Positions 32,412 through 36,801 of a stretch of 64,000 bases of DNA are shown in pieces (position 1 is the first letter of the stretch; each line of letters opens with the position of its first letter). Source of the stretch: a virus; the IMG/VR virus record IMGVR_UViG_3300017714_002439; one strand, 5' to 3'. The notes beneath the pieces were generated by a model, which had not been told where the DNA came from, searched no databases, and worked only from the letters and a program-made list of their open reading frames with translations. The position numbers were made by a program, and so were the translations under genes.

Positions 32412-33116
32412 ATGCCCTCACCATTTAAAAAACCCTGGCACTTCGATAAATTCAAAGAAGATAAAGAAGGCGACTATGTTAAAATAGTAGGGATATTAGC
32501 AGGTGACTGGAAAGCAGAAATAGAACACGCTCGTAGCAAAGGTGTAACAAATCAAAACTACAACGAACAAAGATACGAGCATGCGGCTAATGTTAAAAGC
32601 AAAGATCATGTTGTAGAAGATGCAGACAATCCAGATGGAAAGCCAGAAGCAACTATGTTTCGTAAAGTTAATTACGATAAGTTTCCAGGAGAGTTTCCAC
32701 AGTTTACAAAGATTACAGACATGTTTTGTTTCAACACAGATGAGAAACTAACATGTAAATTTAACGATCAGTATCCAAATGATCAGCTAATGTGGCACAT
32801 TGATAACTTACCCGGAAACCCACGCAAGGATAGAGTTATTGATAACCCAGAGTTTAAGTATCAGCATCCTGATAAGATACGTTTTTTAATTACATTAGAA
32901 GATTGGGAGCCAGGACAGATATTTCAATTTGGTAATCGTGTATATACACAATGGAAAGCAGGAACAATATTTGCATGGGAATGGAGCACACTGCCGCATG
33001 TTACATGGAATGGTAGTTGGACTAAAAGACCTTGTTTGCAGATAACAGGAACAGCAACAGAAACAACATGGAATTTGGTTGCAAAAGGTAATAAAGAAAC
33101 TATATATAAAATTTAA
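32412..33116 (+). CDS. 2OG-Fe(II) oxygenase/cupin-fold protein
   Basis: HxD (WHIDN), RFLITLEDWEPGQIF, distal His (LPHVTWN), R (KRPCLQITG). Confidence 0.7.
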   Translation: MPSPFKKPWHFDKFKEDKEGDYVKIVGILAGDWKAEIEHARSKGVTNQNYNEQRYEHAANVKSKDHVVEDADNPDGKPEATMFRKVNYDKFPGEFPQFTKITDMFCFNTDEKLTCKFNDQYPNDQLMWHIDNLPGNPRKDRVIDNPEFKYQHPDKIRFLITLEDWEPGQIFQFGNRVYTQWKAGTIFAWEWSTLPHVTWNGSWTKRPCLQITGTATETTWNLVAKGNKETIYKI

Positions 33117-33135: not shown

Positions 33136-33164
33136 TTGACCTTTTGTTAAAAGTATTGTATATT
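33136..33164 (+). promoter_or_regulatory. sigma70 promoter of the candidate ncRNA
   Basis: TTGACC-N17-TATATT with upstream A-tracts. Confidence 0.7.
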
Positions 33165-33170
33165 AATAAA

Positions 33171-33390
33171 CATAAGCAACAAAGAGTTTAGCGGCTCAAT
33201 GTTTATAGTGCAAGGAAGAGGCGTTACCTAGGCGTCGAACTTGACTGCTCAGGGGTTATACCCAGGCTTTACCCGGAAAACGGAGGGAGTCACATTGCGG
33301 ATACGCAGGAGTAGGTGGTAGTGTAGTTAGAAAAGGTATCTAGATGTGCTACTTGGAGGTGCACCCCAGTCCTCCCTATTTTGCTTATTT
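33171..33390 (+). ncRNA. Candidate structured non-coding RNA (~220 nt), family unidentified
   Basis: About 50% GC (99/200 counted for 33181-33380) in an AT-rich genome; own promoter and terminator; ends pair (ataagcaa/ttgcttat); several internal hairpins; no convincing ORF. Confidence 0.7.
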
Positions 33391-33419
33391 AAAAACCCAG
33401 TTTTAGGACTGGGTTTTTT
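33391..33419 (+). terminator. Intrinsic terminator
   Basis: aaaaacccagt-tttagg-actgggttttt. Confidence 0.85.
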
Positions 33420-33434
33420 CTTGACTAAAAAAGG

Positions 33435-33463
33435 TTGACAAGTAAGACTTCTTACCGTATACT
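33435..33463 (+). promoter_or_regulatory. sigma70 early promoter with spacer palindrome
   Basis: TTGACA-N17-TATACT; GTAAGA-CT-TCTTAC. Confidence 0.85.
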
Positions 33464-33496: not shown

Positions 33497-34231
33497 ATGC
33501 CAGCAACACAAGTAAAAAATGATATAAGCAATTATACACCAGCTGAAATACTAGCTATCTCATTTGAGGTGTTTGATGCACAAGGTTTTGTTAAAAGTGG
33601 ATTTGGGTATAAAGAACCTACTAATACAGTAGACGAAGAAGGAAATCAAATTTACACTGATATTAAAGATAACAAAACAGTTATTCTTGAAACAGTAAAA
33701 AACTTTAATGGAAAATACATTCCTAATCAAAAATACGTAGATCAAGCAACAGCAGAAATTGAACGCATTAATGGTAAATTAATGATGAAGAAACTAAGTG
33801 GTGATCTTAGTAATTTTGAAGGTGGATTAGTTAAAGCATTAGAAGAAGATGTTAACAACTTCCATGTAAGTATTATTGCAAGTGTTCCAAATTCAGTTAA
33901 GATTGATAAGAAGCGTGAAGCACTAAATGACAGATTAATTCAACTAAAACATACCAGTCAATTTATAGGTAAAAAAGGTGTTCGTTACGATATAGATGTT
34001 GATGTAATTGATGTTAAATTTATTCAATCTAGCGATGTTTATATGATTACGTGTGTATCAGATAACAGAGATATTGTTAAGTTTTGGTGGAGAGAACAGC
34101 CAGATTTAACTGATATTATTGAAGGTAAAACAATATCAATTCGTGGAACAGTAAATAAGCAAGAAATCAGCAAATACAGTAACGCAAAAGAGACTCTTTT
34201 CAATAGAGTTAAGCTATCTAATATAAAATAA
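33497..34231 (+). CDS. Hypothetical early protein (possible C-terminal OB fold)
   Basis: RBS aggag; beta-rich C-terminus (ISIRGTVNKQE...TLFNRVK). Confidence 0.7.
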   Translation: MPATQVKNDISNYTPAEILAISFEVFDAQGFVKSGFGYKEPTNTVDEEGNQIYTDIKDNKTVILETVKNFNGKYIPNQKYVDQATAEIERINGKLMMKKLSGDLSNFEGGLVKALEEDVNNFHVSIIASVPNSVKIDKKREALNDRLIQLKHTSQFIGKKGVRYDIDVDVIDVKFIQSSDVYMITCVSDNRDIVKFWWREQPDLTDIIEGKTISIRGTVNKQEISKYSNAKETLFNRVKLSNIK

Positions 34232-34288: not shown

Positions 34289-34317
34289 TTGACAACCAAG
34301 ACATCTTGCTGTATAAT
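34289..34317 (+). promoter_or_regulatory. sigma70 early promoter with spacer palindrome
   Basis: TTGACA-N17-TATAAT; CAAGA-CA-TCTTG. Confidence 0.85.
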
Positions 34318-34709: not shown

Positions 34710-34738
34710 TTGACAAGTAAGAAGTCTTACTGTAATAT
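34710..34738 (+). promoter_or_regulatory. sigma70 early promoter with spacer palindrome
   Basis: TTGACA-N17-TAATAT; AGTAAGA-AG-TCTTACT. Confidence 0.8.
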
Positions 34739-35686: not shown

Positions 35687-36801
35687 AATTGCTCTGCTAA
35701 TTCAGGATTGTAATCTTCCAGCCGTGTTCCATACATACGATCTGATATTTTTATTAAATCAATAAATTCCTGCCATTTCTTTGGATTATACTTTCTTTCT
35801 TGGCGTCCTTGAAAGTAACTTCGAACTTCAGGACAATCGTTTGATTCTAATATCCACGCTTCATACCAATCTGGTGCATGACAAACACTAAGATCACCTT
35901 CTCCCCAATTACTAAATGTTTCAAGTTCGTTTTGTTTGAACCACTGTATAGTATCAGTATAATTATTTAAATTAAGCAACGTAAATGTATTTAAAAATGT
36001 AAACCAATTAATATTGTCAAACGTAGATTTTATTGTGTTTGCATTTTCAATAATAGTTTCAAAGTTACTGCCCCATCGTTGATAATCGTTGTATTTGTAA
36101 ATTCCATCACAGCTAATTATAAAATTTAATTCTTTTACACTGTGCATTATATCTAGGGTTTCTCCCTTGGGTAAAATAGTAGCATTAGTATTATATAGTA
36201 GACTTAAATTCTGCTTGTTTGGAAACTTCTTTAAGAATGGTAAATGATGTTTTGATAACAACGGTTCACCACCAACAAACTTAATTTGTTCTACATGACT
36301 TAGATCAAATTCATCAAGTAAATCTGGGTCAAACACCCAGGTTGGATGCACATTCTTACCTAACAATTGATCTCGACGCCGTAATTTAGTTGAATTAAAA
36401 CTGCTACACATCTTGCATTCTAGGTTGCATGTGTTGTCTAGACTTACTTCAATATACTTTGTATGGAAGAATTCTTGTGTTAAACTTTCTCTGGCTATAT
36501 CGTATGAATCATTTGCACTTGTTCGCATTGACTTTCCGTGTATTTTGTCATCTTCATAACAGTTTATACATCCTTTAACAGGTATTCCTGCCAGCATCTC
36601 ACTTCTAATTTGACGGAATGCACTTTGATTCATGCGTTCAAGCAACTGTTTGCCATCTTCAATTTCACTGTCATCTTGTCGCATGTTATCCCATTCTTCT
36701 TGATTGAATTTACAACACGGACTTACACCACCGGTTTGTCCATCATAACTTGGATCTAACCGTAAATGCACCCAAGGAAGACTACAAAAATAATTATTCA
36801 T
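35671..36801 (-). CDS. Radical SAM protein with N-terminal Twitch/SPASM-like domain
   Basis: CNLECKMC (CxxxCxxC), FVGGEPLL, YNTNAT; N-terminal CSLPW...PCC...CINC. Confidence 0.9.
   Translation of the reverse strand: MNNYFCSLPWVHLRLDPSYDGQTGGVSPCCKFNQEEWDNMRQDDSEIEDGKQLLERMNQSAFRQIRSEMLAGIPVKGCINCYEDDKIHGKSMRTSANDSYDIARESLTQEFFHTKYIEVSLDNTCNLECKMCSSFNSTKLRRRDQLLGKNVHPTWVFDPDLLDEFDLSHVEQIKFVGGEPLLSKHHLPFLKKFPNKQNLSLLYNTNATILPKGETLDIMHSVKELNFIISCDGIYKYNDYQRWGSNFETIIENANTIKSTFDNINWFTFLNTFTLLNLNNYTDTIQWFKQNELETFSNWGEGDLSVCHAPDWYEAWILESNDCPEVRSYFQGRQERKYNPKKWQEFIDLIKISDRMYGTRLEDYNPELAEQLKKAR

Follow-up and report, generated by a model that had tools for sequence, protein, structure and literature searches.

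What is encoded by a short GC-rich stretch of viral DNA that lies between a promoter and a terminator and holds no credible reading frame? The question is raised by positions 33136 to 33419 of a 64,000-nucleotide stretch of IMG/VR virus record IMGVR_UViG_3300017714_002439 (hereafter, the window; the RNA and the transcription signals around it lie on its plus strand). The original prediction placed there a stand-alone structured RNA gene of unknown family, possibly a protein sponge, an anti-defense decoy or a new motif class. The reading that we find likely, built on sequence comparison, is that of a divergent manA RNA copy whose carrier is an uncultured T4-like myophage of marine origin and a relative of pelagiphage Mosig, an RNA that would act as a free product and whose copies probably pair with one another.

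Transcription signals and coding potential

The locus opens with a sigma70-type promoter (TTGACC-17-TATATT, 33136 to 33164, 10/12 matches), and the predicted transcription start of the window RNA, at approximately 33170-33172, is the first base of helix P1 of the fold described below. It closes with an intrinsic terminator at 33391 to 33419, where a 12-pair hairpin is followed by six U; this element was recognized by sequence, by folding and by our own script (-9.4 kcal/mol, 25 nt past the RNA) and is not listed in an automated terminator scan of the window. The GC content over 33180-33399 is 47.7%, as compared with 28-38% in the flanks. A separate promoter (TTGACA-17-TATACT, 33435 to 33463, 11/12 matches) serves the next gene, at 33497-34231, and marks the edge of the transcription unit of the RNA. 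As the RNA has its own promoter and a terminator just past its last helix, a discrete product of about 220-250 nt is predicted.

The only window ORFs at the RNA locus are one 26-codon frame starting with TTG and one 24-codon frame starting with GTG. When a conserved ORF was sought in 75 distinct homologs, no ORF position was common to more than 30 of them, and 71 of the 75 contain stops in all three forward frames. Coding of a small peptide was thus rejected. With regard to the promoter, the terminator, the GC-rich tract and the lack of a credible ORF, the original prediction was borne out, and its stand-alone structured phage RNA gene behind an early-type sigma70 promoter is supported.

Further downstream, near-consensus sigma70 promoters (10-12/12) are found at 33435-33463, 34289-34317, 34710-34738 and 35936-35963. 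As these precede several successive small genes, each such gene seems to be an early transcription unit of its own.

The fold and its comparative support

The fold of this RNA is real and not a product of chance, and the comparative evidence for it is strong. The folded RNA, of about 217 nt from the 5' strand to the 3' strand of P1 (33172 to 33388), was defined by covariation and by our own model R1, which was built from 66 distinct full-length copies (222-226 nt in length) and which matches window positions 33165-33388 at 186 bits (E 7e-63). Folding of the single sequence yields a z-score of only -2.4 relative to shuffles, which is modest. RNAalifold returns 50 pairs, and 31 of these are backed by compensatory changes. 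For a 65-pair structure in the 66 copies, 94.7% of the pair cells are standard, as compared with 36-52% when the structure is slid along the alignment, and 40 of the 65 pairs show changes on both sides; none of 500 shuffles reached the observed pairing or covariation values. Homologs with compensatory changes in marine viromes, on which the original prediction had made its own case depend, were thus found.

The window RNA folds into nine helices, namely P1, P2, P1b, P3, P4 (holding P5, P6 and P7), P8 and P9. The 5' strand of P1, AUAAGCAA (33172 to 33179), pairs with 33381-33388, with four of five pairs changing on both sides; this outer helix is not in the Rfam model discussed below and is missing from the classic-type relatives L012, L020 and L019. 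P2 (33178 to 33203) is a hairpin that includes GAGU 33184-33187 and GCUC 33194-33197; changes on both sides are seen in six of its seven pairs. The multi-branch core is closed, in the Rfam model, by P1b, whose 5' strand AUAG (33205 to 33208) pairs with CUAU (33376-33379); it is invariant within the clade, while divergent members present UUUG/CAAA, GUAG/CUAC, UGGG/CCCA or GUGG/CCAC. An invariant core of 19 bases begins at 33204. P3 (33211 to 33243), supported by covariation, consists of CAAG/CUUG, an internal loop GAAGA/GAA and the hairpin GGCGUU..GGCGUC, at the tip of which loop L3 carries an invariant ACC.

P4 spans 33244 to 33316, pairing 33244-33250 with 33309-33316 with G33315 bulged; both partners vary in six of its seven pairs, and pairing holds in 99.8% of its cells. 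It closes a four-way junction with three hairpins, each placed by the covariation analysis: P5 (33252-33263, loop GUUAUA), P6 (33265-33291, GAAAA loop) and P7 (33296-33307, loop GAUA). The same analysis gives P8 (33317 to 33353), a long, variable hairpin at whose apex GGUAU (loop L8) is conserved. Last comes P9 (33355 to 33375), a GGAGG/CCUCC helix with an 11-nt loop L9, UGCACCCCAGU, which covaries to GUAGG/CCUAC and GUGGG/CCCAC.

Much of this fold had been drawn by hand in the original prediction. The closing stem 33172-33179/33381-33388 agrees with covariation as drawn, and the hairpins GAGU/GCUC, GGCGUU/GGCGUC, GGGU..ACCC, CCG-GAAAA-CGG and UGCG-GAUA-CGCA, as well as the long hairpin at 33317-33353 and GGAGG/CCUCC, had all been positioned correctly. 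The helix UGACU/AGUCA, proposed to close the junction, is unsupported, as covariation instead pairs CAAG 33211-33214 with CUUG 33240-33243, and 33244-33250 with 33309-33316. The suggested pseudoknot between ACCCC and GGGGU shows no co-variation (L5-L9 test, p=0.98); in this regard, it should be noted that shared ancestry drowned the signal when all positions were naively compared with all others for covarying pseudoknots. An apparent likeness of GGGUGGUACC to the T-box core, a presumed k-turn in the P3 internal loop and supposed replication-origin or pRNA-like roles were ideas that we dropped as unsupported.

The fold also bears on the proposal that the RNA titrates a host RNA-binding protein of the CsrA/RsmA type or a defense protein. 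The early promoter, a discrete RNA gene of the abundant type, conserved single-stranded loops and seven GGA triplets in the window copy would all suit such a sponge or decoy. The seven triplets are indeed all present, as had been reported, but their number lies within chance (4.8 +/- 1.9 in shuffles), and among 73 sequences only one GGA is conserved, within an invariant AAGGAAG in the P3 internal loop, with family members typically holding 2-3 GGA. In addition, there are no repeated hairpin units, and a search among the neighbors across the family found no protein gene that co-occurs with the RNA. We thus consider titration of a protein very unlikely, and the CsrA/RsmA sponge of the original prediction is not upheld; for its anti-defense decoy, the results speak neither for nor against. 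A sponge of the CsrB/RsmZ type specifically, which requires many conserved GGA in hairpin loops, was rejected, given the one found in the 73-sequence set, in an internal loop.

Membership in the manA family and distribution

Can this RNA be assigned to a described family? Scans of the whole 64-kb window against Rfam at gathering scores, together with a 451-nt scan by E-value, returned only terminator look-alikes, and ARAGORN reported no tRNA or tmRNA. A match to manA (RF01745) surfaced when relatives were scanned and when the 236-nt stretch 33160-33395 was scanned alone. It covers 33187 to 33385 and model positions 1-192 of 192, with 38.3 bits and an E-value of 9.2e-9. The score lies below the RF01745 gathering cut-off of 55.2 bits, which is an annotation threshold rather than a biological feature, and for this reason the copy was missed in the whole-window scan. 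Sub-threshold members of known families can thus escape detection unless the exact stretch is scanned.

In the Rfam scan of ten relatives, manA was found in nine (40-81 bits), the exception being the window-type L008, and three of the ten exceed the cut-off (L020 at 80.9, L012 at 67.5 and L075 at 57.7 bits). The copy in Pelagibacter phage Mosig scores 64 bits against RF01745. In the other direction, model R1 gives 236 bits for Mosig and 81-132 bits for more classic-looking manA members. As full-length homologs pass the cut-off, the window copy can be filed as a divergent manA member through a chain of homology. Judged by these sequence matches, the window RNA is a divergent, sub-threshold member of the known family RF01745. 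The original prediction had looked to Rfam as arbiter, and the match there makes the family a known one, so that its 'unknown family', 'new motif class' and 'undescribed system' do not hold. A class unrelated to any described family, for which the empty whole-window scans of this stretch might speak, is refuted by the full-length match in the narrow scan and by homologs that pass the curated cut-off, and is almost certainly not what the window encodes.

manA RNA was described from marine metagenomes, T4-like cyanophages and two gamma-proteobacteria, where it was placed in potential 5' UTRs and listed as a riboswitch candidate (Weinberg et al. 2010, PMC2864571). Its structure was corrected in Rfam release 14.3 (PMC7779021), and the paper on cyanophage S-CREM1 still treats it as cis-regulatory, with its role unverified (PMC9964418). 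The likeness of the window RNA to RF01745 extends to the same helices in the same order, with all 192 model positions aligned: the first hairpin, the core-closing helix, P3 with its internal loop, the three-hairpin junction with a GNRA-type loop, the long hairpin and then a 5-bp hairpin with an 11-nt loop are shared. The helix architecture of RF01745 is backed by covariation, which extends to the core-closing helix when divergent members are included. As with classic manA, the carriers are marine T4-like myophages with one copy per genome. Nonetheless, several differences should be considered. The core-closing helix is AUAG/CUAU in the window, whereas it is G/C-rich in the Rfam consensus; the outer helix P1 is extra; loops L5 and L7 differ; the carriers of the window clade are pelagiphage-like and possibly jumbo phages, as opposed to cyanophages; and the window RNA has its own promoter and terminator, as opposed to the 5'-UTR position of classic manA. 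From its sequence relationships, the window RNA is thus a new manA member, and the clade to which it belongs is divergent and for the most part unannotated. As most copies of this clade fall below the Rfam cut-off and are unannotated, marine phages hold far more of the manA family than the databases record.

In IMG/VR, more than 119 contigs contain the 19-base core, which is also present in phage Mosig. Of the 50,697 phage records searched, the only cultured phage with a match is Pelagibacter phage Mosig EXVC030M, in which an unannotated intergenic homolog lies at 108164-108371 (MT647606.1); it is full-length, with 72% identity to the window RNA over 236 nt. A cultured system is thus available for one member, namely Mosig on Pelagibacter HTCC1062. 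The Mosig RNA has the same promoter placement as the window RNA, but it does not come after UvsY: it is flanked on one side by a hypothetical gene that lies downstream of gp59 and on the other by a putative rubrerythrin gene with gp32 behind it. Unlike the window RNA, it is without a terminator, the next gene following about 15 nt on.

A pattern scan of 185,579 bacterial and archaeal genomes gave 16 matches, of which the only true ones are two phage-like contigs in one MAG. The other 14 have no full-length match, and in six of these the model matches only over the P3 hairpin, which the search pattern itself specifies. The MAG is 'Candidatus Neomarinimicrobiota' RS350 (Tara Red Sea), with contigs L150 (PBPT01000082.1, 153 kb) and L153 (PBPT01000016.1, 335 kb). 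On both contigs, gp21-gp22-gp23 is followed by a manA-type RNA that scores 236 bits with model R1. Both are thus pieces of T4-like phage genomes, which were mis-binned or stem from a phage infecting the host.

Throughout, one copy of the RNA is found per genome or long contig, and neighbors such as gp21, gp23, gp32, gp59 and UvsX confirm the occurrence in marine T4-like phages. Carriers L017, L022, L080 and L007 measure 268, 186, 185 and 112 kb and are 75, 53, 51 and 30% complete according to CheckV, which suggests genomes near 350 kb. The best match of the UvsX region in the window is to jumbo phages of about 350 kb (GAP32, RaK2), so that the carriers may be T4-like jumbo phages of marine origin.

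Free product or leader of the next gene

Since manA is cataloged by Rfam as type 'Cis-reg', the window RNA has to be weighed as a riboswitch or leader whose fold binds a metabolite and governs whether transcription continues past the terminator at 33391-33419 to reach gene 33497-34231. Considered across the family, the genome context points elsewhere. Of 70 distinct contexts in the family, 60 have a promoter (at least 9/12 matches) whose distance from the RNA is constant. A terminator follows 22-36 nt past the RNA in at least 30 of the 70, a number obtained with a crude test that missed obvious cases; the terminator sequences lie outside the fold and vary freely between close relatives. Three contexts are known for the RNA gene: about 75 loci have it after gp21-gp22-gp23, about 25 have it between gp59 and gp32, as in Mosig, and about 17 have it, as in the window, after UvsX-UvsY and a hypothetical gene. 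Grouping of the ORFs that come first on the downstream side gave 17 unrelated groups, and grouping of the upstream ORFs gave 16. The abutting promoter, the frequent terminator and the three contexts with unrelated neighbors together argue for a free-standing RNA, and such movement of the RNA gene between contexts argues that the RNA itself is the product. It would then act independently of its neighbors and would not serve the next gene as its leader or switch.

For the riboswitch reading, one can cite the classification of manA as a probable cis-regulatory riboswitch candidate (Rfam; Weinberg et al. 2010, PMC2864571), a complex fold whose junction bases are invariant, a terminator that shares its strand with the next gene, and the Mosig-type copies. 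In this gp59/gp32 context, no terminator was seen and a gene begins 13-22 nt (or about 64-87 nt) past the RNA, such that the RNA may be co-transcribed there as a 5' leader, as first proposed. In the window, however, the terminator begins after the end of P1, with no conserved alternative pairing to the fold, its sequence is among those that vary freely between close relatives, and the downstream gene has a near-consensus promoter of its own. Neither a terminator or ribosome-binding site that competes with the fold nor a consistent set of downstream genes, as a riboswitch should have, was found, and no manA ligand has been found since 2010. We therefore regard control of the next gene as unlikely for the window copy. 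Its terminator, the separate downstream promoter and the varied neighbors do not correspond to the 5'-UTR position, a difference that bears on the cataloged function of manA and not on homology.

The genes flanking the window RNA, 32412-33116 (234 aa) and 33497-34231 (244 aa), belong to no Pfam family, and the downstream one has only weak matches, to PHROG families with no assigned function. Both are found beside the RNA only in window-type contigs.

manA, an orphan riboswitch candidate since 2010, is now also reported to form a 60-subunit cage in vitro with no biology attached to it, and the clade described here, with a self-contained gene, a strong early promoter and its own terminator, offers a handle on that biology.

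Probable pairing between copies, and neighboring structured RNAs

A July 2026 preprint (bioRxiv 10.64898/2026.07.01.735769) describes manA assemblies made of RNA alone and solved by cryo-EM: octamers, decamers and an icosahedral-like cage of 60 subunits, with manA_A0F1 as the 60-mer and pho34_A767 as the decamer. These assemblies are built from pentamers via L5-L7', L8-L9' or L3-L8' kissing loops and a GNRA-receptor contact. It should be noted that the oligomers were obtained in vitro only, after refolding at 10 mM Mg2+ and about 3 mg/mL RNA, and that the preprint is silent on a role in cells (10.64898/2026.07.01.735769). The window RNA belongs to the same family and contains all of the interface loops, namely L3, L5, L7, L8, L9 and the GNRA loop L6, although the constructs come from other clades.

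In the window RNA, L3 and L8 are complementary over 4 bp (ACCU/AGGU) and L8 and L9 over 3 bp (GGU/ACC), while L5-L7 (UAU/AUA) offers only three A-U pairs and is weak. In the family alignment, within-sequence loop complementarity rises above permutation for L5-L7 (p=0.032), L8-L9 (p=0.044) and L3-L8 (p=0.038), values that are weak as they are corrected neither for shared ancestry nor for ten tests; the other seven loop pairs gave p=0.19-0.98 in the same permutation test. The three pairs above permutation are exactly the interface pairs of the preprint. L5 and L7 change together, for example, as GGUA/UACC, UUGUC/GACAG, UAGU/ACUA and UGC/GCA, and L8 and L9 as UGGU/ACCA in one case and UGGAA/UUCCA in another.

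Given the homology to the manA RNAs of the cryo-EM assemblies, copies of the window RNA probably bind one another through loop-loop pairing. Candidate contacts in the window are L3-L8, L8-L9 and L5-L7, and pairing through them would lead to pentamer-based closed assemblies. One can go further and suppose that the RNA is made abundantly early in infection and forms, in the cell, the pentamer-based shells that other manA RNAs form in vitro, an RNA-only cage that would sequester a small molecule, a factor of the host or some component of the phage. We hold this extension to be speculative and rather improbable, yet if true, it would represent a virus-encoded RNA cage, serving as compartment or scaffold, with a role in takeover.

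Other structured RNAs are found near manA RNA in several relatives. A freshwater-2 RNA (RF02980, 52-77 bits, above cut-off) lies 3' of the manA RNA at L036:954-1040, L062:3324-3406, L099:1221-1293 and L101:2622-2684 (incomplete), with a spacing of about 60 nt in L062, L099 and L101 and of about 500 nt in L036. On the 5' side of the manA RNA in L062, about 180 nt away, a glutamine riboswitch (RF01739, 50 bits) occupies 2831-2878. These phages thus carry small clusters of structured RNAs.
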